Shown: positions 31,642 through 47,420 of the stretch, in pieces
Numbering within the stretch: the first letter of the stretch is position 1
How the letters are laid out: every line of letters begins with the position of its first letter
NCBI GenBank assembly: GCA_013698095.1
Contig: JACCVQ010000133.1
Location: 2,596 to 66,595 of the forward strand
Direction of reading: 5' to 3'
Source of the DNA: Chloroflexota bacterium
GTDB lineage: Bacteria; Chloroflexota; Limnocylindria; Limnocylindrales; CSP1-4
DNA: 64,000 nt
Made by a program: the position numbers and the translations under genes
Notes under the pieces: generated by a model
The model's database searches: none
What the model was told of the DNA's origin: nothing
The model's input: only the letters and a program-made list of their open reading frames with translations

Positions 31642-31806
31642 GGCCGGGCGAGTATAGCGAGGCGCCTCCCCGCTCCGTGCCCTTGGGTCGGAGCGCCCTC
31701 GCAATTCGACATCCTCAACTGGTATCGTCCCGCGGGGCGAACGCACCGGGATGTGTCGCCCGCCCGTGAACGTCCCGTGCGACAGGTGGAATCGAGGGGA
31801 GAGGCA

Positions 31807-33946: not shown

Positions 33947-34747
33947 GTGAAGGTCGTCATCCTCGCCGGCGGTCTCGGGACCCGGCTGTCCGAGGAGACC
34001 GCCTCGCGACCCAAGCCGATGGTCGAGATCGGCGAGCGGCCGATCCTCTGGCACATCATGAAGAGCTACAGCCATCACGGCTTCAACGACTTCGTCGTGT
34101 GCCTGGGCTACAAGGGCTACATGATCAAGGAGTACTTCTCGAACTACTTCCTGCACATGTCCGACGTGACCTTCGACATGCGCGACAACGCGATGACCGT
34201 CCACCAGAACGCGGCGGAGCCGTGGCGGGTGACCCTCGTCGACACGGGGGCAGAGACGCAGACCGGGGGCCGGATCAAGCGAGTCGCCGAGTACATCGGC
34301 GACGAGACGTTCATGCTGACGTACGGCGACGGCGTCGCGGACATCGACCTGGCGAAGCAGCTGGAGTTCCACCGATCCCACGGGAAGGCGGCGACCATCA
34401 CGGCCGTGCAGCCCCTGGGACGCTTCGGATCCCTCGAGATCGATGAGGACGCGACCGTTGGTGGGGTCATCGCGCCCGGGGTGCGGGCATTCCAGGAGAA
34501 GCCAGTCGGCGACGGCGCCTGGGTGAACGGCGGCTTCTTCGTTCTCGAGCCGACGGTCCTCGAGCGGATCGCCGGTGACGACATGCTGTTCGAGCGCGAG
34601 CCGCTGGAGAGCCTGGCCGCCGACGGCGAACTCGTCGCATACCGGCATCGCGGGTTCTGGCAGCCGATGGACGCCCTGCGCGATCTGCGCGTCCTGCAGT
34701 CGTTGTGGGAATCGGGGACAGCACCGTGGGTCGTATGGACGACGTAA
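33947..34747 (+). CDS. rfbF: glucose-1-phosphate cytidylyltransferase
   Basis: ORF 33482..34747 was trimmed to GTG 33947. Contains VKVVILAGGLGTRLSEETASRPKPMVEIGERPILWHIMKSYSHHGFNDFVVCLGYKGYMIKEYFSNYFLH and WVNGGFFVLEP...FWQPMDALRD. It is colinear with RfbF/DdhA. Confidence 0.9.
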   Translation: MKVVILAGGLGTRLSEETASRPKPMVEIGERPILWHIMKSYSHHGFNDFVVCLGYKGYMIKEYFSNYFLHMSDVTFDMRDNAMTVHQNAAEPWRVTLVDTGAETQTGGRIKRVAEYIGDETFMLTYGDGVADIDLAKQLEFHRSHGKAATITAVQPLGRFGSLEIDEDATVGGVIAPGVRAFQEKPVGDGAWVNGGFFVLEPTVLERIAGDDMLFEREPLESLAADGELVAYRHRGFWQPMDALRDLRVLQSLWESGTAPWVVWTT

Positions 34748-35961
34748 CCGGAGTCGCGTCGCGGGCGTCGGCGCTGGCCGTCGAACGACCGATCCGGCCA
34801 TGCCCGGTCTGTGGCTCCGGAATCCACGACGTCCTGTACGAGCAGCGGTTCGAGGACTTCGCGGCCGGAAGCATCACGGACGCCTATGACGTCGTCGCAT
34901 GCCGGAGCTGCGGCATGTGCTTCGCGTCGGGGCTGCCGGAACATGGGCGTTTCGCCGAGTACTACGGGCAATCGTCCAAGTACGACATGGGCGCGGCCGG
35001 CGCCGAGGTGTCGCGTTTCGATGCACAGCGGTATCGGGACGAGGCGGCATTCATTGCTGCCCATGTTGCCGACCGCAGCCGCTCGGTCCTCGACATCGGA
35101 ACTGCAACCGGAGACCTGCTGGTGGCGCTCCGTGACCTCGGTTTCACGAATCTGCACGGGGTCGAACCGTCGGCAGAAGCCGCGCGCAAGGCAAGAGAAC
35201 TCCATGGCCTGGATGTAATCCCTGGCGACATCCGAACAGCTAAAGAGCTTGCCGAGGAATTCGACCTCGTCAGTCTGGTTGCCGTTCTCGAGCACCTCGT
35301 GGATCCCGCCTCGGCTCTTCGTGAGGTCGCTGCACTGCTCAGCACGACCGGAATCCTCTATCTCCTCGTTCCCGACGCGACAAGCTTCAGTGAACACGTC
35401 AACGCGCCTTACCAGGAGTTCAGCGTCGAGCACATCAACTACTTCACTAGTGCATCACTGTCGAACCTGCTCGCGATGGTGGGCTTGCATGTGTCCGTGC
35501 AGCAACGAACCGTTCTTGAACAGAGCGAGGACTCCGAAGGTGGTGCCTTGGAAGTGCTCTGTCAGCGAAGTACTGCTCCCGCGGAGATCCAATTCGACGC
35601 GGCCGGACTCCATGCCCTTCGTGCCTACGTCGACCTCAGTGCGAGGAAGGAAGCTGGCGTAGTAGCGAAGATCAACGAGTTGGCCGAGAGCCAGAGCCCG
35701 ATCTTTGTTTGGGGCACGGGAACTAACACGCTGCACCTTCTGATTGCCTCGCGCCTGGCAGAGTGCAACATCGTGGCCTTCCTGGACTCAAACCCCCACT
35801 ACGCGGGCCGCGAGCTGGCCGGCCGGCCGGTGATGATTCCGACAGCCGTCGCCAACCCGGACGCGCCGATTCTGGTGGCGTCCGCGATCAGCCAGACGGC
35901 GATCGCGACGGCGGCGCGGACCCTTTTCGGCCAGGACGTCCCGCTCATCCTGCTGTACTGA
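34735..35961 (+). CDS. class I SAM-dependent methyltransferase with N-terminal Cys4 zinc-ribbon and C-terminal Rossmann-like module (sugar C- or O-methyltransferase type)
   Basis: Contains CPVCGS...CRSCGMCF, VLDIGTATGDLLVALRDLG, and LVSLVAVLEHLVDP. The C-terminal module reads PIFVWGTGTNTLHLL...VAFLDSNPHYAGRELAGRPV...ILVAS. GC is visibly lower from about 35200 to 35760. Confidence 0.8.
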   Translation: MDDVTGVASRASALAVERPIRPCPVCGSGIHDVLYEQRFEDFAAGSITDAYDVVACRSCGMCFASGLPEHGRFAEYYGQSSKYDMGAAGAEVSRFDAQRYRDEAAFIAAHVADRSRSVLDIGTATGDLLVALRDLGFTNLHGVEPSAEAARKARELHGLDVIPGDIRTAKELAEEFDLVSLVAVLEHLVDPASALREVAALLSTTGILYLLVPDATSFSEHVNAPYQEFSVEHINYFTSASLSNLLAMVGLHVSVQQRTVLEQSEDSEGGALEVLCQRSTAPAEIQFDAAGLHALRAYVDLSARKEAGVVAKINELAESQSPIFVWGTGTNTLHLLIASRLAECNIVAFLDSNPHYAGRELAGRPVMIPTAVANPDAPILVASAISQTAIATAARTLFGQDVPLILLY

Positions 35962-37076
35962 TGTCGAGCCTCAAGGACGCCTATCTCGGGCGCCGCGCCT
36001 TCGTGACCGGTCATACTGGGTTCAAGGGCGCTTGGCTCGCGGAGTGGCTCCGGACGCTGGGCGCCGAGGTCACCGGGTATGCGCTGGATCCGCCGACCCA
36101 GCCGAGTCTCTTCGACGCCCTGGACCTCGGAAGCCGGATGAAGCATGTGATCGCGGACGTCCGTGATCACGAGCGACTCCGGACCCAAGTCCAGGACGCA
36201 CGGCCCGACGTGATCTTCCATCTCGCCGCTCGGGCCCTGGTCCGGCGCGCCTACGAGGAACCGCGCGACACCTTCGAGACCAACGTGATGGGCACGGTCA
36301 ACGTGCTCGAGGCGGCCCGAGCCTGCCCCTCCGTGCGCGCGATCATCATCGTGACGAGCGACAAGTCCTACGAGAATCTCGAGACGGGCCGACCGTTCGT
36401 CGAAGCCGATCCCATGGGTAGCCGCGATCCGTACGGCGCGAGCAAGGCGGCCGCAGAGCTCGTCACGGCCGCCTATCGCGAGAGCTTCTTCGCCGACGGA
36501 GCGGCGGTCGCCAGCGTCCGCGCCGGCAACGTCCTCGGGGGCGGTGACTGGGCGCCGGATCGGATCATCCCGGACTCGGTGCGCGCGCTCGTCGCCGACC
36601 AGCCGGTGGTGGTCCGGAACCCCGAGGCGGTCCGGCCCTGGCAGCACGTCCTAGAGCCGCTGTCCGGCTACCTCCAGCTCGGCGCGCTCCTGTTGGACCA
36701 TGGGCGTCGTTATGAGGGTGCGTGGAACTTCGGGCCAACCGTCCAGGGCTCAGAGCGGCCGGTCCGCTGGGTGGTCGAGCGGTTTCTCGCCGAGTGGGGC
36801 TCGGGCTCCTGGACGACGCCGGCTTCGACCGCCGGCCAGCCCCGGGAAGCCCACCTCCTGAGCCTCGACAGCACCAAGGCCCACGAGCAGCTCGGATGGG
36901 CCCACGTCTGGGAAGCGCCCACGGCCATCCGCCGGACGGCCTCGTGGTATCGCGAGTACTACCGAGATCCGGGCGCCACTCGCGCGCTGGTCGCCGACGA
37001 GCTCCGGGCCTACCAGGACGACGCCGCCGAGGCCGGACGGTCGTGGGCCGGCGTGGCCCGAAGGTCAGCCACGTGA
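35961..37076 (+). CDS. rfbG: CDP-glucose 4,6-dehydratase
   Basis: ORF 35763..37076 was trimmed to ATG 35961 (TGATG overlap). Contains GRRAFVTGHTGFKGAWLAEWL, TSDKSYEN, DPYGASKAAAE, RAGNVLGGGDWAPDRIIPD and RPWQHVLEPLSGYL. Confidence 0.9.
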   Translation: MSSLKDAYLGRRAFVTGHTGFKGAWLAEWLRTLGAEVTGYALDPPTQPSLFDALDLGSRMKHVIADVRDHERLRTQVQDARPDVIFHLAARALVRRAYEEPRDTFETNVMGTVNVLEAARACPSVRAIIIVTSDKSYENLETGRPFVEADPMGSRDPYGASKAAAELVTAAYRESFFADGAAVASVRAGNVLGGGDWAPDRIIPDSVRALVADQPVVVRNPEAVRPWQHVLEPLSGYLQLGALLLDHGRRYEGAWNFGPTVQGSERPVRWVVERFLAEWGSGSWTTPASTAGQPREAHLLSLDSTKAHEQLGWAHVWEAPTAIRRTASWYREYYRDPGATRALVADELRAYQDDAAEAGRSWAGVARRSAT

Positions 37077-38449
37077 CTGCCCCGCGCGAGGGCGCCCCCG
37101 GCACACGCGACGACATCCTCGCGTTGGTCGGCCGCTACTACCGCGAGCGCCACACGCCTCCGTCGTTCGACCCCGCCCGCGACCCGGTGCGCTATGCGGG
37201 CCGCGTTTTCGGCGAGGAGGAGATGCGCCTGCTGGTCGACTCGAGTCTCGACTTCTACCTGACCGCCAGCCGCTTCACCGAGGAGTTCGAGTCGAGCTTC
37301 GCCGAGCGTCTCGGCCTGTCCGACGCCCTCTTCGTGAACTCCGGATCGTCGGCGAACCTCGTCGCCCTCACGACGCTGACGTCGCCGAAGCTCGGCGACC
37401 GCCGCCTCGTCGCCGGAGACGAAGTGATCACGGTGGCGGCGGGCTTCCCGAGCACCGTCACTCCGATCGTCCAGAACGGCCTCGTGCCGGTCTTCGTCGA
37501 TGTCCGGCTTGGCGACTACAACGCGGATCCGGAGCAGTTGCGGGCGGCGATGTCGCCGCGGACGCGAGCCATCATGCTCGCCCACACCCTCGGCGTCCCG
37601 TTCGACCTCGACACGGTCATGGACCTCGTGAAGACCCACGACCTGTGGTTCGTCGAGGACAACTGCGACGCCCTCGGCGCGACGCACCGTGGCCGGCTGA
37701 CCGGGACGTTCGGTCACCTGGCGACGTCGTCCTTCTATCCGGCGCATCACATCACGACCGGCGAGGGCGGGATGGTCGTCACCGCTGACGAGCGGCTCGC
37801 CCGCACCGCCCAATCCATCCGCGACTGGGGCCGTGATTGCTACTGCGCCGGGGGCGAGAACAACACCTGCGGCAAGCGGTTCAGCCAGCAGTTCGGCAGC
37901 CTGCCGTACGGCTACGACCACAAGTACGTATACAGCCAGCTCGGCTACAACCTGAAGGCAACGGACATGCAGGCGGCGATCGGCTGCGCCCAGCTGAAGC
38001 GGCTCGACGAGTTCGTTGCCGCCCGCCGGCACAACCACGGCCGGCTGCTGGATGCGCTCCGGCCGTTCGAGGACCGGCTCATCCTGCCGGTCACGCCGCC
38101 GAACACGGATCCGTCGTGGTTCGCGTTCGTGATCACGGTCCGCGAGGACGCCGGCTTCACGAGGGCCGACCTGACCGGCTACCTCGAGGCCAACCGGATC
38201 GAGACGCGCGGCCTGTTCAGCGGGAACCTGCTCCGACACCCGGCATTCGAGTCGATCGAGCGCCGGGTCGTCGGCGACCTGGCAGCCACCGATGTGGTCA
38301 TGAATCGGACGTTTTTCGTGGGCGTGTACCCGGGGATCGACGATGCGCGCCTCGACTACATGGTCGACGCGTTCGAGCGCTTCATGGCGGGCGATCGCAC
38401 GAGCCGCACACCCGCGGGCCGGCTCACGCCCGCGCCCGCGGATCGCTGA
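37073..38449 (+). CDS. rfbH: CDP-6-deoxy-L-threo-D-glycero-4-hexulose-3-dehydrase (E1; PMP and [2Fe-2S] dependent), RfbH/DdhC
   Basis: ORF 36722..38449 was trimmed to GTG 37073 (GTGA overlap). This is a DegT/DnrJ-fold protein with SSFYPAHHITTGEGG, meaning His replaces the usual PLP lysine, which is the E1 hallmark. The cysteine cluster is RDWGRDCYCAGGENNTCGKRF. Confidence 0.9.
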   Translation: MTAPREGAPGTRDDILALVGRYYRERHTPPSFDPARDPVRYAGRVFGEEEMRLLVDSSLDFYLTASRFTEEFESSFAERLGLSDALFVNSGSSANLVALTTLTSPKLGDRRLVAGDEVITVAAGFPSTVTPIVQNGLVPVFVDVRLGDYNADPEQLRAAMSPRTRAIMLAHTLGVPFDLDTVMDLVKTHDLWFVEDNCDALGATHRGRLTGTFGHLATSSFYPAHHITTGEGGMVVTADERLARTAQSIRDWGRDCYCAGGENNTCGKRFSQQFGSLPYGYDHKYVYSQLGYNLKATDMQAAIGCAQLKRLDEFVAARRHNHGRLLDALRPFEDRLILPVTPPNTDPSWFAFVITVREDAGFTRADLTGYLEANRIETRGLFSGNLLRHPAFESIERRVVGDLAATDVVMNRTFFVGVYPGIDDARLDYMVDAFERFMAGDRTSRTPAGRLTPAPADR

Positions 38450-38457
38450 GCGGGGCG

Positions 38458-39150
38458 GTGGCCGTCGTCCGCAGGATCTCATGCGCGGTGCGCGCGATCG
38501 TCGATCACGGCGAGCGCGTCTACACGGTGGAGCTCGAGCCCTCGACCCGCGTGCCGCTCTTCAAGCCGGGCCAGTTTCTGCACCTGGCGATCGATCCGTT
38601 CGATGGAGCGGGTTTCTGGCCTGAGTCGCGGGTGTTCTCGATCGCGAGCTCGCCCCACGAACGGGTTCGGCTGACGATCACCTATGCCGTCAAGGGCGCC
38701 TTCACGACGCGGATGGAGCGCGAGCTGGCGCCCGGCGCCACCGTCTGGGTCAAGCTCCCGTACGGTGAGTTCGTGGTGGACGCGACGAACGACGCGGTGC
38801 TGTTCGCGGGCGGTACCGGCGTGACGGCTTTCACCGCGTTCCTCCAATCGCTCACGCCCGACCTGACCTCGCGCGTCCTGCTTTTCTACGGCGCCCGGAC
38901 GGCGGATCTCTTCGTCTACGGTCCGCTCGTCCAGGCGTGTGCTCGGGAGGTCCCGTCGTTGACCTGCCACCTGGTCAACGAGGAGACGCAGGGCCGCCTC
39001 GAGGTCGACGCCGCGTGGCCGGCCATCAGCCCCCTCCACGACCCGGTCTTCTATCTCAGCGGCCCGCCGCAGATGCTGGACGCCCTCGCGGCACAGCTCC
39101 GAGGACGCGATGTCCCCGCCGAAGGGATCCGGACGGATGCCTGGGAGTGA
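38458..39150 (+). CDS. FNR-type FAD/NAD(P)H oxidoreductase, E3 (CDP-6-deoxy-delta-3,4-glucoseen reductase)-like but lacking the ferredoxin domain
   Basis: ORF 37837..39150 was trimmed to GTG 38458. Contains FKPGQFLHLAI, RVFSIASSP (the R-x-Y-S type FAD motif), and VLFAGGTGVTAF (the NAD(P) motif). It is only about 230 aa and has no N-terminal Cys-x4-Cys-x2-Cys segment. Confidence 0.7.
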   Translation: MAVVRRISCAVRAIVDHGERVYTVELEPSTRVPLFKPGQFLHLAIDPFDGAGFWPESRVFSIASSPHERVRLTITYAVKGAFTTRMERELAPGATVWVKLPYGEFVVDATNDAVLFAGGTGVTAFTAFLQSLTPDLTSRVLLFYGARTADLFVYGPLVQACAREVPSLTCHLVNEETQGRLEVDAAWPAISPLHDPVFYLSGPPQMLDALAAQLRGRDVPAEGIRTDAWE

Positions 39151-40198
39151 CGCGCGCCCGCTGCCGGTGCAAGACCTGGAGCACATCCTCGAGCACACCG
39201 AGGCCCTCTGGCAGGACCTCCGTGGCGCTCGACTGTTCGTGACCGGCGGAACGGCCTTCTTTGGTCGGTGGATGCTGGAGAGCTTCCTCAAGGCGAACGA
39301 CGACCTTGGGCTGGGCGCCGAGGCCACAGTGCTGACGCGCGATCCAGCCCGGTTCGCCGCGGCGGCGCCACACGTCGCGGAGCACGCGGCCGTGACCTTG
39401 CACCGCGGCGACGTCAAGTCGTTCGAATTCCCGACATCCGACTGTAGCCACGTGCTACATATGGCCACGGAGGCTGGTCCGGGAATGTCTCAGCGCGCCT
39501 CGTTCCAGACGGCCACCGCGGGCACCGAACGCGTGCTGGCCTATGCCGCCCTGCGTGGGTCGCACAAGCTATTGCTCACCAGCTCCGGGGCCGTGTACGG
39601 CAAGCAGCCGCCCGACTGTGACCGCCTCTCCGAGGAGTACGCCGGGGCGCCACAGCCGGAAGACGCGAACGCTGGCTACAGTTTCGGAAAGCGGGCGGCC
39701 GAGTCCCTTTGCTTGGCCGTAGCGGCGGAGTCCGGCGTCGAGGTCAAGATTGCGCGCTGCTTCGCGTTCGTCGGTCCGCTCCTGCCGCTGGACCAGGATT
39801 ACGCCATCGGCAACTTCTTCGGCGACGCGTTGGATCGCGATCACATCGAGATCAAGGGCGACGGCACCGCGCGCCGCTCCTATCTCTACGCGTCCGACCT
39901 TGCCATCTGGCTCTGGACGATCCTGGTGCGGGGCGAATCGGGCCGGCCATACAACGTCGGCTCGGAGCAGGATCTGAGCATCGCCGAGCTGGCAGGAAAG
40001 GTCGCCGGCGCGGTCAGGCCGGGCATCCCGGTTCGCATCGCCCAGACGCCGACCGGTGCCGCTCCCTCGCGTTACATCCCGTCCACCGCCCGGGCCAAGG
40101 GCGAGCTGGGCCTCCAGGCGCATGTCATGCTGGACGAAGCGGTGCGTCGGACGGCGCAGTGGCACCGCGACGGACCAGCGCCCGCAGGCGCAGGCTAG
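39137..40198 (+). CDS. NAD(P)-dependent epimerase/dehydratase-family protein (extended SDR), candidate 4-keto or branch-carbonyl reductase (YerF/RfbS-like role)
   Basis: ORF 39110..40198, with ATG 39137 preferred. Contains RLFVTGGTAFFGRWMLESFL, LLTSSGAVYG and YSFGKRAAE (Y-x3-K). Confidence 0.8.
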   Translation: MPGSDARPLPVQDLEHILEHTEALWQDLRGARLFVTGGTAFFGRWMLESFLKANDDLGLGAEATVLTRDPARFAAAAPHVAEHAAVTLHRGDVKSFEFPTSDCSHVLHMATEAGPGMSQRASFQTATAGTERVLAYAALRGSHKLLLTSSGAVYGKQPPDCDRLSEEYAGAPQPEDANAGYSFGKRAAESLCLAVAAESGVEVKIARCFAFVGPLLPLDQDYAIGNFFGDALDRDHIEIKGDGTARRSYLYASDLAIWLWTILVRGESGRPYNVGSEQDLSIAELAGKVAGAVRPGIPVRIAQTPTGAAPSRYIPSTARAKGELGLQAHVMLDEAVRRTAQWHRDGPAPAGAG

Positions 40199-40287
40199 GC
40201 TTGATGGACACCGATCGGACCGACAGAGTTGTCGCGGGCGCCCCACGCGCTGATTCGCTCCACTAGAACCGCCGGGAGACGCACTTG

Positions 40288-41154
40288 ATGGAAGTTCAAC
40301 TGGGGGGACGGCCCGTCGGGGACGGACAGCCCTGCTACGTGTTGGCCGAGATCGGGATCAACCACAACGGCGACGCGCAAATCGCACGGAAACTGATCGA
40401 TGTCGCCGAGTTCGCGGGCTGTGAAGGGGTCAAGTTCCAAAAGCGAACGGTCGACGTCGTCTACACCGCCGAGGAGCTGGCCAAGCCGCGCGAGAGCCCG
40501 TTCGGCGAGACGAACGGCGATCTGAAACGCGCGCTGGAGTTCGGCCAGGCAGAGTACGAACAGATCGACGCCTACTGCCGGACCAAGCCCATCTCATGGA
40601 CGGCTTCGCCCTGGGACGAAGCCTCCGTCGACTTCATCGACCAGTTCGACCCGCCGTTCTTCAAGGTCGCCTCGGCATCGCTGACCGACGACGGGCTGCT
40701 CCGCCACATCCGCTCGAAGGGCAAGCCGATCGTGCTGTCGACCGGGATGAGCACGCTCGAGCAGATCGACCACGCCGTCGACGTCCTCGGCAAGGAAGAT
40801 CTGATCCTCCTCCATTGCTGCAGCGCCTACCCCTCCCAGTACGCGGAGCTGAACCTCCGTGCAATTCCGGTCCTGCGCGAGCGCTACGGCATTCCGATCG
40901 GGTATTCGGGGCATGAGACCGGCATCGCATCGTCGGTCGCCGCCGCGGTCCTTGGGGCGTGCATCGTCGAGCGCCATATCACGCTGGACCGGTCGATGTG
41001 GGGATCGGACCAGGCCGCCTCGCTCGAGCCGAACGGGATCATGCGGGTGGTTCGCGACATCCGGCTCGTGGAAACGGCGATGGGCGACGGTGAGAAGACC
41101 GTCCTCCCGTCCGAGGTTCCCATCATGCAGAAGCTTCGGCGGGTCGGGCTCTGA
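40288..41154 (+). CDS. NeuB-family PEP-condensing ulosonic-acid (sialic-acid-type) synthase, TIM-barrel only, no SAF/AFP domain
   Basis: Contains CYVLAEIGINHNGDAQIARKLIDVA...GVKFQKR, FFKVASASLTD, IVLSTGMST, LLHCCSAYPS, IGYSGHETG, and VERHITLDRSMWGSDQAASLEP. The protein ends after 288 aa, where canonical NeuB continues with a SAF domain of about 60 aa. Confidence 0.85.
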   Translation: MEVQLGGRPVGDGQPCYVLAEIGINHNGDAQIARKLIDVAEFAGCEGVKFQKRTVDVVYTAEELAKPRESPFGETNGDLKRALEFGQAEYEQIDAYCRTKPISWTASPWDEASVDFIDQFDPPFFKVASASLTDDGLLRHIRSKGKPIVLSTGMSTLEQIDHAVDVLGKEDLILLHCCSAYPSQYAELNLRAIPVLRERYGIPIGYSGHETGIASSVAAAVLGACIVERHITLDRSMWGSDQAASLEPNGIMRVVRDIRLVETAMGDGEKTVLPSEVPIMQKLRRVGL

Positions 41155-41156
41155 GC

Positions 41157-41633
41157 GTGACGATCAAGGCCGTCGCGATGGACGTCGACGGCGTCCTTAC
41201 CGACGGGACGGTCTGGCTCGACGAGAACGGTGGCGAAGGGAAGGCCGTCTCGTTCGCCGACATCATGGGCGTCTCGCTGGGCCGCCGCGCTGGCCTGCTC
41301 TTCGCGTTCGTTTCGGGAGAGGGCGGACCGTGCCTCGATCGGATCGCGGCGAAGTTCGGCGTCGGCGACGTGTACCGCGACTGCAAGGACAAAGCTGGCG
41401 CGGTCCGCGACTTCGCCTCCCGCTACGACCTCGACCTCGCCGAGGTCTGCTTCATCGGCGATGACGTCAACGACGTGCCGGCCCTCGAGATCTGCGGCCT
41501 CGCCGTCGCACCCGCCAACGCCCAGGGGCCCGCGGCGGCGGCGGCGTCGATCGTGACGACGAGACCGGGTGGGGGCGGTGCCGTGCGAGAGGTCATCGAC
41601 GACCTTCTGCGCGCCCGCGAGGTTGCGCAGTGA
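41157..41633 (+). CDS. HAD-IIIA phosphatase, KdsC/YrbI family (ulosonate-phosphate phosphatase)
   Basis: Contains AMDVDGVLTDG, KDKAGAVRDF, FIGDDVNDVPAL and GGGGAVREV. It has a GTG start 3 nt after the neuB-like stop. Confidence 0.85.
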   Translation: MTIKAVAMDVDGVLTDGTVWLDENGGEGKAVSFADIMGVSLGRRAGLLFAFVSGEGGPCLDRIAAKFGVGDVYRDCKDKAGAVRDFASRYDLDLAEVCFIGDDVNDVPALEICGLAVAPANAQGPAAAAASIVTTRPGGGGAVREVIDDLLRAREVAQ

Positions 41634-43426
41634 GGCTCGCCGACTACGTCATGCAACGGGTCGCGGACGCCGGCGTCGGGCATGTCTTCATGGTCCCGGG
41701 CGGCGGCGCGATGCACCTGAACGATGCGCTGGGCCTGTGCAAGGACCTCGAGTTCGTGTCCACCCTGCACGAACAGGCTGCAGCGATCGCGGCCGAGGCC
41801 TATGCCCGCGTCACGAACAACCTGGGAGTCGCGCTCGTCACGACCGGACCGGGTGGCACGAATGCGATCACCGGCGTAGCCGGCGCCTGGTTGGAGTCGA
41901 CCCCGTGCCTGATCCTGTCCGGCCAGGTCAAGCGTGCGGATCTGAAGGGTGTCCTCGGCGTCCGCCAGCTTGGCCCGCAAGAGGTCGACATCGTCTCGAT
42001 CGTCACGCCGATTACCAAGTACGCGGTCACGGTGATGGATCCGCTGGCGATCGGCTTCGAGCTGGACAAGGCGCTCCACCTAGCCCGGACGGGCAGGCCA
42101 GGCCCGGTCTGGCTCGACATTCCCCTGGACGTCCAGGGTGCGCAGATCGACCCGGCCGTGCTGGAGCGCTACGACCCAGGGTCCGCGGAATCGATTCCCG
42201 TCGATGTCGCCGGCCAGATCGAGCGAACGATCGAATTACTGAACGCCGCCAAACGACCCGTCCTGCTCGTGGGCAATGGGGTCCGGCTCGCTGGCGCCGG
42301 CAACGCCTTGCTCCATTTCGTCGATGCCCTGGACATCCCGGTCCTCGCGACGTGGATGGGCGCGGACCTGCTGTGGGAGACGCACCCGCGGTACTTTGGC
42401 AAGCCCGGGACCGTAGCTTCGCGAGGTGCCAACTACACCCTCCAGAACGCCGATCTCCTCCTGTCGATCGGAGCCCGGCTCGATGTTCCCGTCACGGGCT
42501 TCGATCGCACCCAATTCGCTCGCGCGGCCCAGGTCATCGTCGTGGACATCGACCCGACTGAGATTAACAAGCTGGGCGCCGTCGTCGATCTCCCGGTGTG
42601 TGCCGACGCAGGGACGTTCATCTCGGGCGTTCTCGAGCGTTCCCGAACGATCGCCGCCGTGGACCGATCGGCCTGGCTCGAACGCTGTACCGAGTGGAAG
42701 AGCCGCTATCCCGTGATCCTGCCCGAGTACTGGGAGCGGGCCGACTTCGTCAACACCTATGCCTTCTCCAGCGTGCTGGCTGACGAGCTCGACGGCGACG
42801 ACCTGATCATCCCAGGCAGCTCCGGGGTCGGGATCGATACGTTCTGGCTCGCGTTCGCCGTGAAGCAGGGGCAGCGACTGTTCAGCACTGGCGGCCTCGG
42901 TGCGATGGGCTTCGGCCTGCCGGCCAGCATCGGCGGATGCCTCGCGAGCGGTCGCAAGCGGACGATCAGCGTCGATGGGGATGGCGGCTTCCAGCTGAAC
43001 ATCCAGGAGCTGGAAACGGTCGTACGCCTCGACTTGCCGATCAAGTTCTTCGTCATCAACAACGACGGCTACGCCTCGATCCGGGCGAGCCAGAACAACC
43101 ACTTTCACGGGAATCTGGTCGGCTCCGACGCATCGAGCGGCTTGACCCTGCCCGACCTGATGAAGATCGGCGCGGCCTACGGCATCGCCACGGAACGCAT
43201 CACCGAGAACGCGGGCCTCAAGGCCAGCATACGCGCAGTGCTGGATCGACCCGGACCCGTGCTCTGCGAGGTCGTAGTCGCGCCGGACCAGGCGATCGGG
43301 CCGCGCGTTTCGTCGGTACTCCGGCCGGATGGCACCATCGTAAGCCGACCGCTCGAGGACCTGTGGCCGTTCTTAGAACGTGACGAGCTTCGCTCGAACA
43401 TGCTGATTCCGACCCTCGATGAGTAA
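41630..43426 (+). CDS. thiamine-diphosphate-dependent enzyme, acetolactate-synthase large-subunit-like (YerE-like candidate)
   Basis: GTGA overlap with the upstream stop. Contains GVGHVFMVPGGGAMHLNDAL, HEQAAAIAAEAYARV, VTTGPGGTNAITGVAGAWLESTPCLILSGQV, GLGAMGFGLPASIG and DGDGGFQLNIQELET...NNDGY. Confidence 0.85.
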   Translation: MRLADYVMQRVADAGVGHVFMVPGGGAMHLNDALGLCKDLEFVSTLHEQAAAIAAEAYARVTNNLGVALVTTGPGGTNAITGVAGAWLESTPCLILSGQVKRADLKGVLGVRQLGPQEVDIVSIVTPITKYAVTVMDPLAIGFELDKALHLARTGRPGPVWLDIPLDVQGAQIDPAVLERYDPGSAESIPVDVAGQIERTIELLNAAKRPVLLVGNGVRLAGAGNALLHFVDALDIPVLATWMGADLLWETHPRYFGKPGTVASRGANYTLQNADLLLSIGARLDVPVTGFDRTQFARAAQVIVVDIDPTEINKLGAVVDLPVCADAGTFISGVLERSRTIAAVDRSAWLERCTEWKSRYPVILPEYWERADFVNTYAFSSVLADELDGDDLIIPGSSGVGIDTFWLAFAVKQGQRLFSTGGLGAMGFGLPASIGGCLASGRKRTISVDGDGGFQLNIQELETVVRLDLPIKFFVINNDGYASIRASQNNHFHGNLVGSDASSGLTLPDLMKIGAAYGIATERITENAGLKASIRAVLDRPGPVLCEVVVAPDQAIGPRVSSVLRPDGTIVSRPLEDLWPFLERDELRSNMLIPTLDE

Positions 43427-43444
43427 CCTTGGCAACGAACGAGC

Positions 43445-44290
43445 ATGACCAGGATCGGCATCATGCAGGGACGACTCGTGCCCCCGCTGGGCGGCCGCTT
43501 CCAGTGCTTTCCGCGCGATGGCTGGGCCGGCGAGTTCGCGTTCGCGGCCGCTGCGGGAGTGGACACGATCGAATGGATCTACGACGAGTTCGGGGCGGAC
43601 GTCAACCCAATCGCAAACGACGACGGGATCGACGCGATGCAACAGCTCTCGGATCGCCATGGCGTCCGGGTCGTGTCGCTCTGCGCCGACGTCTTCATGG
43701 ATCGCCCGCTCGTTCGAGCTAGCCAACCCCAGCTGGAGGAGCGGATCGGCGTCCTGATCTGGCTGATCGATCGCGCCCGACAGGTCGGCATCGGGCGGAT
43801 CGTGCTGCCCTTCGTCGACATTTCGAGCATCGAGACCGATCCCGAGTTCGAGCAGGTCGTCGATACGATCCTGGGCGTCGTGCCCCGGGCACAGGAGGCT
43901 GACGTCGAGCTCCATCTCGAGACGTCCCTCGGCCCGGACCGGTTCGCCGCGCTCCTGGCGCGACTGCCTCCGGGGGTCGTCAAGGTCAACTACGACATCG
44001 GCAACAGCGCTTCGCTCGGGTACGACCCGCTCGAGGAGCTGGCGGCGTACGGCGATCGCGTCGGGAGCGTCCACGTCAAGGATCGGGTCCGAGGCGGAAG
44101 CACCGTCCCGCTCGGGTCAGGCGACGCTGATCTGCCAGCGGTCTTCGATCGCCTGCGAGAGTTGCAGTACGCAGGCGACTACGTCCTGCAGGTCGCGCGT
44201 GGGGAGCCCGGCGACGAGGTCCGCTGGGCCCAGCGAAATCGCGAGCTCGTCCAGCAGTATCTGGCGGCTCCGGGGGCGAGCGGCCCATGA
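43445..44290 (+). CDS. xylose-isomerase-like TIM-barrel protein (sugar-phosphate isomerase/epimerase family)
   Basis: Contains RIGIMQGRL, AGVDTIEW, VVSLCADVFM, LHLET, NYDIGN and SVHVKD, the motif spacing typical of the AP_endonuc_2 family. Confidence 0.72.
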   Translation: MTRIGIMQGRLVPPLGGRFQCFPRDGWAGEFAFAAAAGVDTIEWIYDEFGADVNPIANDDGIDAMQQLSDRHGVRVVSLCADVFMDRPLVRASQPQLEERIGVLIWLIDRARQVGIGRIVLPFVDISSIETDPEFEQVVDTILGVVPRAQEADVELHLETSLGPDRFAALLARLPPGVVKVNYDIGNSASLGYDPLEELAAYGDRVGSVHVKDRVRGGSTVPLGSGDADLPAVFDRLRELQYAGDYVLQVARGEPGDEVRWAQRNRELVQQYLAAPGASGP

Positions 44291-45336
44291 AGCTTCTGGT
44301 GGCCGGTCTCGGCGGCATCGGCCAACGCCACGTCCGGAACCTGCGGACGCTGTTGGGCCCCGAAGCCGAGATCCTCGCCTATCGCGTGCGACGGGACTCG
44401 CCGACGCTCACCGACAGCCTCGGTGTCGAGCCCGGCGCTGAGGTGGACGAGAAGTACGGCCTCAAGGTCATCACCGACCTGGACGCCGCGCTCGGTGAAG
44501 GGCCGGATGCGGTGCTCATCTGCAATCCGAGCAGCCTTCACCTGTCCATCGCGCTGAAGGCCGCCCATGCCGGCGCGGCGATGTTTGTGGAAAAGCCCCT
44601 CTCCAACGACCTCGCCGGGGTCGCGGAGCTCGTCGACCTGGTCGAGAGCAGGCGGCTGGTCGGCCTCGTCGGGTACCAGATGCGGTTTCACCCGGGTCTG
44701 CGCCGCGCCCACGAGCTCCTCGAGGCCGGGGCGATCGGCCGCGTCGTCGCCGTCAGGATCGAGGTCGGCGAATACCTGCCGGGATGGCACACGTATGAGG
44801 ATTACCGCCAGATGTACGCCTCGCGGGCAGACCTCGGCGGGGGCGTCGTCCTGTCCCAGATCCACGAGCTGGATTACGTCTACTGGCTGTTCGGGATGCC
44901 ACGCCGGGTCTTCGCTCTCGGCGGTCATCTCACGCGGCTGGAGGTGGACGTCGAGGACACGGCCAGCATCCTGCTGGAGTGCACCGTCGATGGGCGGGCC
45001 ATCCCGGTCCACGTCCACCAGGACTACATTCAGCGGCCTCCGAGCCGGACCTGCGAGATCATCGGCGATGCGGGCAAGATTCTGATCGACCTTCGCCAGG
45101 TGACACTGACCGTGTTCGGCGTAGAAGGGACCATGACGGAGTCGACGGCCAACCCGGACTTTGCACGAAACCAGCTCTTCCTCGACGAGATGACCCACTT
45201 CCTTGCTTGCCTCGAGGGCCGGGAGACGCCGAGCGTCACGATTCGCGACGGGGCGCGGAGCCTTGCGATCGCCCTGGCGGCCAAGGAGTCCATCGCGACG
45301 GGACAGGTCGTTGAACTCTCGCAGGCCGGCCTGTGA
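44287..45336 (+). CDS. Gfo/Idh/MocA family NAD(P)-dependent oxidoreductase
   Basis: ATGA overlap. Contains MKLLVAGLGGIGQRHVRNL, VLICNPSSLHLSIALKAAHAGAAMFVEKPL, GYQMRFHP and SQIHELDYVYWLFG. Confidence 0.85.
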   Translation: MKLLVAGLGGIGQRHVRNLRTLLGPEAEILAYRVRRDSPTLTDSLGVEPGAEVDEKYGLKVITDLDAALGEGPDAVLICNPSSLHLSIALKAAHAGAAMFVEKPLSNDLAGVAELVDLVESRRLVGLVGYQMRFHPGLRRAHELLEAGAIGRVVAVRIEVGEYLPGWHTYEDYRQMYASRADLGGGVVLSQIHELDYVYWLFGMPRRVFALGGHLTRLEVDVEDTASILLECTVDGRAIPVHVHQDYIQRPPSRTCEIIGDAGKILIDLRQVTLTVFGVEGTMTESTANPDFARNQLFLDEMTHFLACLEGRETPSVTIRDGARSLAIALAAKESIATGQVVELSQAGL

Positions 45337-46163
45337 TGCGACCAAACGATCTCTTCGACCTGTCGGGCAGGGTCGTGGTCGTCACGGGAGGCGCCGGGTT
45401 GCTCGGTCAGCGGCACGGGGAGGCGGTCGCCGGCGCGGGCGGCATCCCCGTTCTGGCCGACCTTCGAACGGATCGGCTCGACCCCGCCCACGCGGGCTTC
45501 GCTGCGCGGTTCGGGCCACAGGCCTCGGTCGTCGGCGTCGACATCACCGATCCGCGGAGTGTCGAGTCGCTGCTCCAGACCGTCCTGGGCACATATGGTC
45601 GAGTCGACGTCCTGATCAACAACGCGGCGAACAATCCGAAGATGGAGCCTGGGTCGGACGTCGAGTTCTCCCGCCTCGAGTCCTTCCCGTTGGCGCAGTG
45701 GCAGGCGGACATCGCCGTCGGTCTCACGGGATCGTTCCTGTGCAGCCGAGAAATCGGTGCTGAGATGGCGAAGCGGGGGCGCGGTGTCATCGTCAACGTC
45801 GCTTCCGATCTTGCGCTGATCGGCCCCGACCAACGGCTGTACCGGAAGGACGGGCTCGCCGAGGACCTGCAGCCGGTCAAGCCCGTAACGTACTCCGTCG
45901 TCAAGTCGGGGCTCATCGGCCTGACGCGCTACCTCGCAACGTACTGGGCGAGCGCAGGCGTTCGCGTGAACGCGATCTCGCCAGGCGGCGTCTACACCGA
46001 CCAGACGGAGGACTTCGTCCAGCGTCTCTCGAGCCTCATCCCTATGGGGCGCATGGCCAACGTCGACGAGTACGCAGGAGCGATTCTGTTCCTTTGCTCC
46101 GACGCCTCGTCGTACATGACCGGCGCCAACCTCGTCGTGGATGGGGGCCGGACCGCCTGGTGA
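45333..46163 (+). CDS. classical short-chain dehydrogenase/reductase
   Basis: Contains VVVVTGGAGLLGQ, INNAANN, VNVASDLALIG, YSVVKSG (Y-x3-K), and RVNAISPGGV. Confidence 0.85.
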   Translation: MMRPNDLFDLSGRVVVVTGGAGLLGQRHGEAVAGAGGIPVLADLRTDRLDPAHAGFAARFGPQASVVGVDITDPRSVESLLQTVLGTYGRVDVLINNAANNPKMEPGSDVEFSRLESFPLAQWQADIAVGLTGSFLCSREIGAEMAKRGRGVIVNVASDLALIGPDQRLYRKDGLAEDLQPVKPVTYSVVKSGLIGLTRYLATYWASAGVRVNAISPGGVYTDQTEDFVQRLSSLIPMGRMANVDEYAGAILFLCSDASSYMTGANLVVDGGRTAW

Positions 46164-46193
46164 AGACCCGGACCACCTCTTGGTGTCGCTCCC

Positions 46194-47420
46194 GTGAGTG
46201 ACGTCGGGCCTACCCCCTCCTCTCGAGGCCCGGCCGGAACCAGCGATTCCCTGGCGGCTCTGCTCGACCACGATCCGGAGGACTGGCGCTCGGCGCTGGA
46301 CCGGCGCTACGCAGTCCTCGACGACGTCCTGGACGGCCGACGGAGTGCGATCGTCTACCCGGCCGCCCGGCTCGGCAGGGACGTGGTGCCTCAGTTGACG
46401 GCGCTCGGGGTGCTGGTCGCGGCGTACGGCGACCGCGACCCGAGCGTGCATGGCGGCGCGGTCGACGGGCTGCCGGTTCTCTCGCCGGCGCGGGTCGCGG
46501 TTCGCCACCAGGCGGACGTCATTCTCGTGGCGAGCACGATGTACGACTCGGCGATTCGTGAAGACCTCGAGTCGCGGGGATGCCAGCATGTGATCCCATT
46601 TGGCTACCTCAACCTGCGTCTGCCGCACATCTTCCGGACGCGCGAGTACGACGGCGCTTGGAAAGGCGCGCTCGACCCGACCAATCGACCCGACATCGAG
46701 GCGGCGCATGCGCTGCTCGGCGACCTGGAGTCGCGAACGGTGTTCGAAGGAAAGCTCGGGTACTACCTGGCCCGCGACAAGGCGAACATCGACGGCATCC
46801 GATCGACCAACACGATCTATTTCGACCGCAGCGTCCACGCCCTGAACCCCGAGGAGGTCGTCGTCGACGGCGGCGCCTTCGTCGGGGACACGTTGTCGTC
46901 CTTCGTGGGCGAGAGCGCAGGCCGCTTTCGCGCCTACTACGCCTTCGAACCGGATCCTGTGAGCTTCGATCGCCTCGAAGTGGAGGCGGCACGCGACCCG
47001 GCGCGAGTCACGGCCGTCCGGGCAGGTCTGGCCCGCCAGACCTCCAGCGCCCGTCTGCTGAGCACGCATGGGGCCGACGCACGCTTCCTGGGCGCCGAGG
47101 AATCCGGCGGAGACGAGGTCCCGGTCGTCGGCCTCGACGAGTACTTCGCAAAACGGCGTCCCCCAACGCTGATCAAGATGGACATCGAGGGCGCTGAGGC
47201 GGATGCGCTGCACGGAGCGGCGCGCATCATCGCGGCGGTTCGGCCGAAGCTCGCGATCTCCGCCTACCATTATCCGACCGATCTCTGGCGGATCCCGCTT
47301 CTCCTGCAGCGGCTGATGCCCGATAGCCGACTCTACCTCCGCCACTACACGCGGGAGGTCGACGACACCGTGTGCTATGCGATCCCGGGGGACAAGTCCT
47401 TTCAGCCACTGGTGGGGTGA
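46194..47420 (+). CDS. FkbM-family SAM-dependent methyltransferase with N-terminal Rossmann-like module
   Basis: GTG start. The C-terminal half reads [12 protein letters not shown]...AFEPDPVSF...[14 protein letters not shown]...PKLAISAYH, which are FkbM motifs. The N-terminal module reads [17 protein letters not shown]...[24 protein letters not shown]...ILVAS. Confidence 0.8.

Follow-up and report, generated by a model that had tools for sequence, protein, structure and literature searches.

In Yersinia pseudotuberculosis the yersiniose A pathway (DdhA-D, YerE, YerF) leads to CDP-4-keto-3,6-dideoxyglucose, to which a ThDP enzyme adds a two-carbon branch at C4 from pyruvate before a final reduction. 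Long alpha-keto acid donors have precedent as well, in ErwE, MMAR_2332 and MyGE (PMC9306805). In the erwiniose-type clusters (ErwE/ErwF/ErwI/ErwJ of Pectobacterium atrosepticum and the JanthE cluster of Janthinobacterium sp. HH01) the donor-supplying genes adjoin the ThDP gene (PMC9306805), and a BphI/BphJ-type pyruvate aldolase-dehydrogenase pair makes the donor 4-hydroxy-2-oxopentanoate. Caryophyllose (MMAR_2332/MMAR_2331, Mycobacterium marinum) and gastriose (MyGE/MygI, M. gastri) carry C6 and C7 polyhydroxyalkyl branches on a 3,6-dideoxyhexose, and these branches were proposed to come from polyhydroxylated alpha-keto acids via YerE-like enzymes (PMC9306805). The published donor suppliers for both sugars are described as pyruvate aldolases, MMAR_2331 as one of the HpcH/citrate-lyase type, and the gastriose branch matches decarboxylated 3-deoxy-octulosonic acid.

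The window (the whole stretch of 64,000 nucleotides of the CSP1-4 genome that was analysed) combines rfbF-rfbG-rfbH, a YerE-like ThDP gene and an SDR gene, as the erwiniose-type clusters do, and would share with the Yersinia pathway the acceptor, the ThDP branching at C4 and the subsequent reduction. We consider it fairly likely that positions 33947 to 47990 of the plus strand form a single operon for a CDP-activated 3,6-dideoxyhexose that bears a long polyhydroxyalkyl chain on its C4. The core of the original prediction, that a YerE-like carboligase is combined with the pathway to a CDP-4-keto-3,6-dideoxyhexose and that a C4-branched, probably methylated sugar is to be expected, is borne out. 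The genes that it named are all found on the plus strand in GC3-supported frames, but its list was incomplete: a NeuB-type synthase and a KdsC-type phosphatase within 33947-43426 had been missed. The operon also runs beyond 43426 and ends at 47990, the additional genes encoding a TIM barrel, a Gfo/Idh/MocA oxidoreductase, a classical SDR, an FkbM methyltransferase and a frameshifted gmhA-like protein.

The identities of the enzymes that build the acceptor are clear. The rfbF gene (33947..34747, true start GTG at 33947) scores 427 bits on the glucose-1-phosphate cytidylyltransferase equivalog TIGR02623 (cut-off 300), rfbG (35961..37076) 447 bits on the CDP-glucose 4,6-dehydratase equivalog TIGR02622 (cut-off 278), and rfbH/E1 (about 37064..38449) 670 bits on the CDP-6-deoxy-4-hexulose 3-dehydrase model NF011936 (cut-off 423). 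In the last of these, His replaces the PLP Lys, as read directly in FYPAHHIT, and the Fe-S motif C-X57-C-X1-C-X7-C is exact (DNCDALG...DCYCAGGENNTC). The ATG of rfbG overlaps by 1 nt the stop of a gene for a zinc-ribbon class I SAM methyltransferase of unassigned target (34705..35961; Methyltransf_23, 1.9e-24; N-terminus CPVCGS...CRSCGMCF), homologues of which are present in 25 of 80 related loci. The protein taken before as an E3-like reductase (38458..39150, 230 aa) is E3-like only in part: it has the FAD/NAD modules, but the [2Fe-2S] ferredoxin domain is absent, so that in comparison with Yersinia E3 is reduced to an FNR module. Among domain models it matches NAD_binding_1 only, its best NCBIfam match is NAD(P)H-flavin reductase (62 bits), and just 2 of the 80 related loci have a homologue; it is a candidate E3 substitute. 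With this FNR-only reductase, or with a reductase encoded elsewhere, RfbF, RfbG and E1 would convert glucose-1-phosphate to CDP-4-keto-3,6-dideoxyglucose by the chemistry established for their family.

The gene at 41630..43426 encodes an enzyme with three TPP domains, and the earlier view that it is YerE-like is upheld; it is not AHAS-like. Its best PDB matches are JanthE (8rph, 437 bits by phmmer) and PpYerE (5ahk, 313), ahead of plant AHAS (281) and E. coli AHAS I (251); it scores 398 on TIGR00118, under the AHAS equivalog cut-off of 538; and in the tree it falls on the JanthE/PpYerE side, from which E. coli IlvB, IlvI and Gcl are split off with an SH-aLRT of 96. On these comparisons the enzyme is no acetolactate synthase, and the carboligases JanthE and PpYerE are its nearest solved relatives. 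It carries Pro at both AHAS specificity positions (Phe and Arg); throughout the family Pro, Ser or Val takes the place of the donor-specificity Phe, and no member has Arg at the acceptor position.

One would argue that the enzyme could nevertheless be an acetolactate synthase of primary metabolism, the best NCBIfam name for it and the label that JGI gives to its relatives, or an IolD-like enzyme in a cyclitol pathway together with the products of the next two genes. These encode a xylose-isomerase-like TIM barrel (43445..44290; PF01261, 3.4e-25), which matches IolE weakly, and a Gfo/Idh/MocA oxidoreductase (44287..45336; PF01408 and PF02894), whose best model is IolG, although its score of 129 on TIGR04380 lies under the cut-off of 355. 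However, the ThDP enzyme lies under every AHAS equivalog cut-off, has no adjacent small subunit and resembles JanthE and PpYerE more than any AHAS, and IolD is absent from its top 25 models. Of 50 full-length loci, only 14 have the TIM barrel and only 11 the oxidoreductase, and both also stand beside NeuB where the ThDP gene is absent; in ThDP-less CMP-type loci the TIM barrel directly follows NeuB, and in locus L115 it is fused to NeuB and SAF. We therefore regard a role in primary or cyclitol metabolism as very improbable. The TIM barrel is predicted to belong to the ulosonic-acid module, as an isomerase, epimerase or dehydratase that acts on a sugar or sugar phosphate.

The question of the donor leads to the two genes that precede the ThDP gene. 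The first (40285..41154; PF03102, 260 bits) encodes a NeuB-family synthase without SAF domain, in which the motifs EIGINHNGD, GYSGHE and ERH are intact; it scores 254 on TIGR03569, under the cut-off of 400, and its best PDB match, 6ncs, likewise has 290 aa and no SAF. The second (41157..41633) encodes a C0 HAD phosphatase of the KdsC/KDN-9-P-phosphatase type with the motif DVDGVLTDG, which reaches 106.3 bits on TIGR01670 (cut-off 106.95) and almost equal scores on the NCBIfam models for KdsC (96.8) and KDN-9-P phosphatase (96.5). The KDN pathway of Bacteroides thetaiotaomicron consists of a NeuB-family KDN-9-P synthase, a KdsC-family KDN-9-P phosphatase and a CMP-KDN synthetase. The operon resembles it in the synthase and the C0-type phosphatase and differs from it in the missing SAF domain and the absence of a cytidylyltransferase. 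We propose that the synthase joins PEP and an aldose phosphate to a 3-deoxy-2-ulosonate phosphate and thus supplies the branch donor. Its substrate would probably be manno-configured, namely mannose-6-P or, in the presence of a GmhA-like isomerase, heptose-7-P or a pentose-5-P. The phosphatase would then release a 3-deoxy-2-ulosonic acid with some 8-10 carbons.

The three genes are translationally coupled, the HAD gene starting 3 nt past the NeuB end (a 2-nt gap) and its stop overlapping the ThDP start by 4 nt. The linkage holds in both search directions: among 67 GTDB loci that extend 2.5 kb or more upstream of the ThDP gene, a NeuB-family gene lies within 4.5 kb in 61 and somewhere in the locus in 65, and a ThDP gene follows within 2.5 kb downstream in 47 of 59 NeuB-anchored metagenome loci. 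The donor modules are of two kinds that exclude each other, SAF-less NeuB with HAD (sometimes with a GmhA-like SIS protein) and a NeuB-SAF-cupin isomerase fusion, and the module type follows the ThDP tree with 6 changes against a shuffled mean of 18 (none of 200 shuffles was as low). Across 160 loci the ThDP gene and CTP_transf_3 never occur together (ThDP only in 130, CTP_transf_3 only in 7); the ThDP-less sister loci (L115, L118 and others) are KDN-like and have CTP_transf_3 genes, of which one also encodes a fused HAD domain. The ulosonic acid is thus paired with the ThDP enzyme or else activated with CMP, and this acid, as the product of NeuB, most probably serves the ThDP enzyme as donor.

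These data bear directly on the yersiniose analogy of the original prediction, in which pyruvate gives a two-carbon acetyl branch and a YerF-type reductase completes the sugar. The NeuB and HAD proteins would then belong to an unrelated second pathway for a KDN- or Kdo-like acid of the same glycan. YerE is the founding precedent for such a branch, and JanthE, the nearest solved relative, takes pyruvate in vitro (PMC12188165). Against it stand the coupling of the three genes and their linkage in both directions; moreover, a CMP-ulosonate synthetase was found neither in the window nor in the 130 ThDP-positive loci, whereas one is present in all well-sampled loci that have the same NeuB type but no ThDP gene, and without an enzyme to activate it a free ulosonic acid could not be built into a glycan. 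In AHAS the Phe at the donor position favours pyruvate, and small residues stand in its place here. The YerF-type finish fares no better, since the window holds no homologue of the SDR at the ErwF/YerF position of the JanthE cluster and only 2 of the 80 related loci do. The analogy is thus unlikely to apply, and the gene context predicts a C7-C9 branch.

The JanthE cluster, ordered rfbF-rfbG-rfbH-JanthE-SDR-BphJ-like-BphI-like aldolase, serves as a positive control: a donor-supply gene adjoins its YerE-like gene. The window proteins are 62% (RfbF), 49% (RfbG), 54% (RfbH) and 37% (ThDP enzyme) identical to those of this cluster. In place of its aldolase pair, which is found in none of the 80 related loci, the operon has the PEP-dependent NeuB-type synthase and the phosphatase; the NeuB type also sets it apart from the aldolases of caryophyllose and gastriose.

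A further possibility is that the ThDP enzyme acts on the ulosonic acid alone, yielding a 2-deoxy-aldose or a ligation to an acceptor other than the CDP-sugar, while a separate, unbranched CDP-3,6-dideoxyhexose enters the same glycan. The tighter linkage of the ThDP gene to NeuB (65/67) than to the rfb genes, present within 10 kb in 41 of the 50 full-length loci and missing there in the other 9, speaks for it. However, the order rfbF-rfbG-rfbH-SDR-NeuB-HAD-ThDP is met again in different phyla as a block of genes that all point the same way, the JanthE cluster has the same fusion of rfbFGH and ThDP pathways, and the enzyme groups with the ketone-accepting YerE/JanthE carboligases and not with simple decarboxylases. 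A non-exhaustive search also identified no paratose/abequose-synthase-type 4-ketoreductase to finish an unbranched sugar. This explanation, too, is improbable, and a long-branched CDP-3,6-dideoxyhexose, similar to gastriose or caryophyllose and not to yersiniose, is most likely the product.

In forming this product the ThDP enzyme would decarboxylate the ulosonic acid, an alpha-keto acid, and transfer the acyl-anion equivalent to the C4 ketone of the CDP-sugar, as gene linkage and the published 'unifying scheme' suggest. This use of an ulosonic donor stays putative, because 3-deoxy-2-ulosonic acids are mostly cyclic hemiketals. Locus L163, with rfbFGH-NeuB-HAD but neither a ThDP gene nor a cytidylyltransferase, counts against the proposed pathway. 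MyGE did not accept ketones in vitro (PMC12247030). For all members of the family the functional links rest on gene context, and the predicted pathway would fit within the known acyl-branched-sugar scheme.

The branch ketone may be reduced by the extended SDR (39110..40198; PF01370, 4.7e-32), which is found in 41 of the 50 full-length loci as the cassette's conserved core reductase or epimerase; it is 33% identical to the second JanthE-cluster SDR (351 aa) and has no blastp match to the one at the ErwF position. Two methyltransferases and a three-enzyme tailoring set are additional to the Yersinia pathway. The TIM barrel, the Gfo/Idh/MocA protein and a classical SDR of the gluconate-5-dehydrogenase/KduD type (45333..46163; adh_short_C2, 1.3e-43; gluconate 5-dehydrogenase, its top NCBIfam match, 164 bits, KduD 128) may modify the ulosonic acid or its precursor, and the product would be methylated by the zinc-ribbon enzyme and the FkbM-family protein (46194..47420; PF05050, 5.4e-14; TIGR01444), probably an O-methyltransferase, which is present in 40 of the 80 loci. 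The last gene, a gmhA-like SIS isomerase (47426..47990), requires three frames with switches near 47518 and 47604, as judged by tblastn with 20 intact homologues, and an independent Logan contig at 26x depth has the identical sequence; the intact homologue of locus L005 scores 186 bits on TIGR00441 (gmhA). With this gene broken and the E3-like protein lacking its Fe-S domain, the pathway could be impaired in the CSP1-4 genome.

The predicted connection of the sugar to GT-C enzymes agrees with the genes linked to the operon. On the minus strand lie a predicted polyprenyl-phosphate sugar synthase, a GtrB/ArnC/PgfS-like GT2 (48022..48990; PF00535; NF047588 PgfS 186 bits, ArnC 125), and a GtrA-family small membrane protein, a putative flippase partner (48987..49532, start approximate; PF04138, 8.8e-15). 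The TTG start of the former at 48990 is deduced from a TTGA overlap with gtrA. This arrangement, in a window rich in GT-C, resembles that of three-component lipid-linked glycosylation (GtrA/GtrB/GtrC, CsbB-YfhO, PgfS-PgfM, ArnC-ArnT), and the association recurs in other lineages: GtrB-like homologues are present in 44 of 81 loci, window included, and within 10 kb in 32 of the 50 full-length loci, a GtrA cluster is present in 27 related loci, and the commonest large membrane proteins nearby are of GT-C families. This suggests that the sugar may be loaded onto polyprenyl phosphate, taken across the membrane and handed over to GT-C enzymes. However, the donor in CSP1-4 would be a CDP-sugar; to our knowledge, known GtrB-type enzymes take UDP- or GDP-sugars, and we know of no description of a CDP-sugar donor for the class, which counts against this step.

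The earlier view that such sugars are rare finds no support: the ThDP enzyme has more than 6,900 matching protein clusters at E <= 1e-150, and about 19 phyla are represented among the related loci. The family is non-mycobacterial and belongs mostly to uncultured Acidobacteriota, Planctomycetota, Thermodesulfobacteriota, Verrucomicrobiota and others. This soil bacterium thus probably uses the operon to make a sugar of the cell surface whose long carbon side chain would be built by a sialic-acid-synthase-like enzyme and attached by a thiamine enzyme, and operons like that of CSP1-4 occur across many bacterial phyla.

Third-position GC marks out the operon as one co-directional series of genes on the + strand, in which all successive genes overlap or follow each other closely. 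The CDP-3,6-dideoxyhexose pathway is recognized by three equivalog models, all above cut-off: rfbF (33947-34747, +; TIGR02623, 427 bits against a cut-off of 300), rfbG (35961-37076, +; TIGR02622, 447 bits against 278) and rfbH/E1 (approximately 37064-38449, +; NF011936, 670 bits against 423). Read directly, E1 carries FYPAHHIT, with His at the position of the aminotransferase PLP-lysine, and the exact [2Fe-2S] motif C-X57-C-X1-C-X7-C. A methyltransferase with an N-terminal CxxC...CxxC zinc ribbon (34705-35961, +) lies between rfbF and rfbG. The original prediction also listed an E3-like reductase (+ strand, GTG start at 38458): the FNR module is there, but it makes up the 230-aa protein alone, and the plant-type [2Fe-2S] ferredoxin domain that we sought in this ORF is absent. 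Homologues of this reductase occur in 2 of 80 related loci. All the genes of the earlier list were borne out by curated models or motifs, but two genes within the same interval had been left out, a NeuB-family synthase and a HAD phosphatase, which sit between the extended SDR gene (39110-40198, +; directly after the E3-like gene) and the ThDP gene (41630-43426, +).

The NeuB-family synthase (40285-41154, +) has 289 aa, matches PF03102 with 260 bits and retains intact metal and PEP motifs. The protein stops after the barrel and has no C-terminal SAF/antifreeze-like domain, as is the case in its closest solved relative, 6ncs. The HAD protein (41157-41633, +; 158 aa) is of the KdsC/KDN-9-P-phosphatase type and the stop of its gene overlaps the ThDP start by 4 nt; the curated models for KdsC (96.8 bits) and KDN-9-P phosphatase (96.5 bits) do not separate its substrate by score.

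The ThDP enzyme matches PF02776, PF00205 and PF02775, and its motifs LHEQAAA (HEQ, with the catalytic Glu) and GDGGFQ...VINNDGY (cofactor) were read directly. Among solved structures the best match is 8rph with 437 bits, which we identified as JanthE by its CDG motif and a 100% match to a Janthinobacterium sp. HH01 protein, followed by 5ahk (PpYerE) with 313 bits; plant AHAS, E. coli AHAS I and Gcl reach 281, 251 and 189 bits, respectively. The original prediction had singled out grouping with bona fide acetolactate synthases as the decisive check of its YerE-like assignment, and the assignment withstands it: in a tree of 88 sequences, for which PpYerE, JanthE and the E. coli enzymes IlvB, IlvI and Gcl served as references, the window enzyme and its relatives fall with PpYerE and JanthE, and a branch with SH-aLRT of 96 parts this side from the three E. 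coli enzymes. One would argue that the enzyme could still be a biosynthetic acetolactate synthase (IlvB/IlvI/IlvG). We rejected this reading on three grounds: the score on TIGR00118 is 398 against a cut-off of 538 and lies below every AHAS equivalog cut-off, the Pfam scan of the operon genes found no ilvN/ilvH-like small-subunit gene, and two residues typical of AHAS are both replaced by Pro. The first of these is the Phe at the specificity position, which in AHAS favours pyruvate as donor; relatives of the window enzyme mostly have Ser, Val or Pro in this column. The second is the acceptor-binding Arg, which is found in no member of the family. As judged from its sequence, the ThDP enzyme is YerE-like and not an acetolactate synthase.

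Public databases hold more than 6,900 protein clusters that match the ThDP enzyme at E <= 1e-150, and every JGI-derived relative that is named at all bears the label "acetolactate synthase large subunit"; this is probably a systematic error of annotation. Cultured carriers were sought among the best 120 homologues, all of which are environmental.

The association of the ThDP enzyme with NeuB and with the rfb genes extends far beyond the window. Species-representative genomes contain 168 relatives with 49-72% identity, and the best 80 of these 168 loci, which we compared, bear phylum labels for approximately 19 phyla; the order rfbF-rfbG-rfbH-SDR-NeuB-HAD-ThDP of the window recurs among them. 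A NeuB-family gene is found within 4.5 kb of the ThDP gene in 61 of the 67 loci with at least 2.5 kb of sequence upstream of it, and anywhere in the locus in 65. The rfb genes, which share an operon with the ThDP gene in the window, lie no more than 10 kb from it in 41 of 50 full-length loci and are missing within 10 kb in the other nine. The association was also seen in reverse, when metagenomes were scanned with the NeuB protein: among 59 hits with at least 1.5 kb of downstream sequence, a YerE-like gene lies within 2.5 kb in 47 and a HAD gene adjoins in 41. A second YerE-like paralogue, which is divergent, is present in two Acidobacteriota loci (L041:3009-4937 with 4957-5958; L072:6730-8538) and in L041 adjoins a second NeuB-like gene, which suggests that one such locus serves two different branched sugars.

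The ThDP gene was also compared with CTP_transf_3, the CMP-ulosonate synthetase family. Across all 160 loci the two never occur together: the ThDP gene is alone in 130 and the cytidylyltransferase in 7. Neither the window nor any of the 130 ThDP-positive loci yielded such a gene by tblastn with E. coli KdsB and three CTP_transf_3 proteins as queries, nor was the family recurrent among 215 leftover ORFs scanned with Pfam. Seven of the well-sampled NeuB loci that lack a ThDP gene (L115, L118, L121, L132, L103, L141 and L153) carry CTP_transf_3 instead; their NeuB is of the SAF-less type and about 70% identical, and the trio of xylose-isomerase-like TIM barrel, Gfo/Idh/MocA oxidoreductase (GFO) and SDR is kept in most. 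L118 has up to three CTP_transf_3 genes (one of them HAD-fused), a GmhA-like isomerase (SIS) gene and a GT2 gene, and both L118 and L115, the two loci checked by Pfam, contain a second NeuB and weak KpsS/KpsC-like (Capsule_synth) matches. The pathway of these sister loci is probably of the capsule type, with a CMP-ulosonic acid of an unusual kind. A free ulosonic acid has no entry into a glycan without activation. The either/or pattern implies that the ulosonic acid is either activated with CMP or passed to the ThDP enzyme. One locus, L163, is an exception: rfbF-rfbG-rfbH-NeuB-HAD is followed by a 154-aa ORF, an SDR and a GtrB-like GT2, and neither a ThDP gene nor a cytidylyltransferase is found within 8 kb. 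A replacement by a ThDP enzyme of the alpha-keto-acid-dehydrogenase type was rejected for this locus, since the two ORFs past HAD are the SDR and the GtrB-like GT2 and not E1 alpha/beta.

The NeuB genes come in two kinds of module. Type A, that of the window, consists of the SAF-less NeuB and the HAD; of the 20 loci with a GmhA-like SIS gene nearby, 19 possess the HAD. In type B the NeuB has about 500 aa and is fused to SAF and, at the C-terminus, to a cupin of D-lyxose/mannose-6-P isomerase type (e.g., L018:7867-9372, L064:8471-9985, L071:6208-7812 and L080:8369-9919); such fusions accompany the ThDP genes of one clade with 22 members and those of a few loci besides. Vallitalea maricola and Xanthobacter sp. 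VTT E-85242 are among the carriers of type B. A conserved 197-aa protein, for which there is no Pfam or NCBIfam match, lies between the type B fusion and the ThDP gene, and a HAD phosphatase is next to it in 0 of 13 cases. The module type follows the ThDP tree with 6 changes against a shuffled mean of 18, and none of 200 shuffles was as low.

In the window, the ThDP gene is followed on the + strand by the TIM barrel, the GFO (best model IolG, below cut-off), an SDR resembling gluconate-5-dehydrogenase/KduD and an FkbM methyltransferase, the last two assigned by Pfam/NCBIfam. A cyclitol pathway, in which ThDP, TIM and GFO would be IolD/IolE/IolG-like, was considered and rejected: IolD is absent from the top 25 models of the ThDP enzyme, and TIM and GFO also accompany NeuB where there is no ThDP gene. 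In loci of the cytidylyltransferase type the order is NeuB-TIM-GFO-SDR, followed in L118 by the GmhA-like SIS gene, and L115:12431-14332 is a fusion of NeuB, SAF and a xylose-isomerase-like TIM barrel. Judging from these fusions and gene orders, the SIS, cupin and TIM proteins would act as aldose-ketose isomerases or epimerases in preparing the aldose of NeuB, and the TIM/GFO/SDR trio falls in the ulosonic-acid half of the pathway. Mannose-6-P, a pentose-5-P or heptose-7-P are possible aldoses, for a branch of roughly 7-9 carbons. Neither a heptose kinase nor a heptose nucleotidyltransferase is found beside the GmhA-like gene among the families of the 215 leftover ORFs, which argues against an ordinary nucleotide-heptose pathway. 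The GmhA-like gene at the end of the window operon (47426-47990, +) is readable only in three frames, with switches at approximately 47518 and 47604. The same stretch is letter-identical in an independently assembled Logan soil-metagenome contig at 26x depth; therefore, the frameshifts are no artefact of a single assembler, and the gene is probably a true pseudogene. In this genome the E3 is truncated and the gmhA is broken.

The relationship to JanthE is instructive for the question of the donor. The physiological substrates of JanthE are stated to be unknown (PMC12188165). In Janthinobacterium sp. HH01 (L086; AMWD01000002.1, 4131597-4153429) its gene stands in the order rfbF-rfbG-rfbH-JanthE-SDR-acylating acetaldehyde dehydrogenase (BphJ-like)-4-hydroxy-2-oxovalerate aldolase (BphI-like)-SDR-GT2, the same layout as in erwiniose-type clusters, where the aldolase pair makes the donor (Steitz et al.; PMC9306805). 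Because of this cluster, the natural donor of JanthE is probably 4-hydroxy-2-oxopentanoate and the acceptor CDP-4-keto-3,6-dideoxyglucose. The published "unifying scheme" clusters have a class II pyruvate aldolase (BphI or HpcH type) by the ThDP gene; contrastingly, the window family has the NeuB module directly upstream. A BphI-type aldolase occurs in 0 of the 80 loci of this family, and no aldolase family was present among the Pfam hits of the window operon or the recurrent families of the 215 leftover ORFs. Taken with the placement of NeuB, the JanthE case indicates that the rule by which donor-making genes adjoin the YerE-like gene holds in the known case and carries over here.

The donor of the ThDP enzyme is therefore most likely the NeuB product, a ulosonic acid, which is chemically suitable because it is an alpha-keto acid. 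The sialic-acid-synthase-type enzyme would build a ulosonic acid of 8-10 carbons; in loci that have a stand-alone GmhA-like isomerase, this may be a 3-deoxy-deculosonic acid made from heptose-7-phosphate. The ThDP enzyme would fuse the ulosonic acid, minus CO2, to C4 of the CDP-3,6-dideoxy-4-ketohexose. Everything past the identity of the enzyme families, including carboligation onto the ketone, is inferred from gene context. The same genomic context argues against pyruvate as donor, which would leave a C2 branch. The original prediction of a yersiniose-like sugar was thus right in kind, since a ThDP-branched CDP-3,6-dideoxyhexose is retained, but the branch is probably long and derived from a ulosonic acid rather than two carbons from pyruvate. 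To regard the extended SDR as the branch reductase is a guess; in the JanthE cluster it is the second SDR that it resembles, not the one at the ErwF position. This latter 313-aa SDR, our proxy for YerF, has no blastp match in the window and is present in 2 of 80 loci. We class the locus as a variant of the acyl-branched-sugar scheme that is widespread in uncultured bacteria and has an uncharacterised product. Krug et al. 2024 reportedly surveyed more than 200 YerE-like clusters in silico; that survey or Lanza et al. 2024 may already mention a donor supply of the NeuB type. Among the papers covered by our literature search, none names both YerE and N-acetylneuraminate synthase.

The CDP-sugar would then be transferred to polyprenyl phosphate by a GtrB-like enzyme, and GT-C transferases would install it on the outer side of the membrane. 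In the window, a GtrB/ArnC/PgfS-like GT2 and GtrA are adjacent to each other and convergent with the operon; a GtrB-like GT2 is present in 32 of 50 full-length loci and GtrA in 20. The GT-C genes of the window are five GT87 and one PMT_2, and in other genomes, where 57 large polytopic membrane proteins are encoded close to the cassette, GT-C types are the commonest families of these proteins (PMT_2 9, YfhO 5, PMT 3, GT87 2, TMEM260-like 2). This linkage and frequency support the original proposal that the sugar feeds a GT-C-built glycan, here through a lipid carrier, with the use of a CDP-sugar by a GtrB-type enzyme being putative. A mycobacterial LOS (caryophyllose) locus, which high GC and the GT87 genes brought to mind, was rejected as the ThDP relatives are not mycobacterial. 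A large polytopic membrane protein is also encoded at approximately 31800-33831 (+), inside the long ORF 30745-33831, which has about 14 hydrophobic segments, no Pfam match, and an end 115 nt 5' of rfbF on the same strand; its product is a candidate for a dedicated transferase or polymerase of the branched sugar.

In our estimate the chances are about even that the route from NeuB through the ThDP enzyme and the GtrB-like enzyme to GT-C transferases yields an undescribed class of 13-15-carbon branched monosaccharides, spread over many soil and sediment phyla and hidden behind thousands of mislabelled genes. It would extend the acyl-branched-sugar scheme known from YerE, ErwE, MMAR_2332 and MyGE by another route of donor supply, in which a PEP-dependent NeuB-type synthase with a phosphatase, or a NeuB-cupin isomerase fusion, replaces the pyruvate aldolase, and it names candidate physiological donors for a ThDP carboligase family of biocatalytic interest. 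If this is true, thousands of metagenome genes called "acetolactate synthase" or "N-acetylneuraminate synthase" belong to this pathway; in metagenome surveys, SAF-less NeuB homologues should not be taken to indicate sialic-acid-like sugars, nor should these ThDP enzymes be counted as acetolactate synthases. Apart from those of a few mycobacteria and plant pathogens, no characterised surface sugar comes near the size predicted here for abundant uncultured soil lineages, and for the large GT-C glycan island of this genome the likely specialised sugar can now be named.
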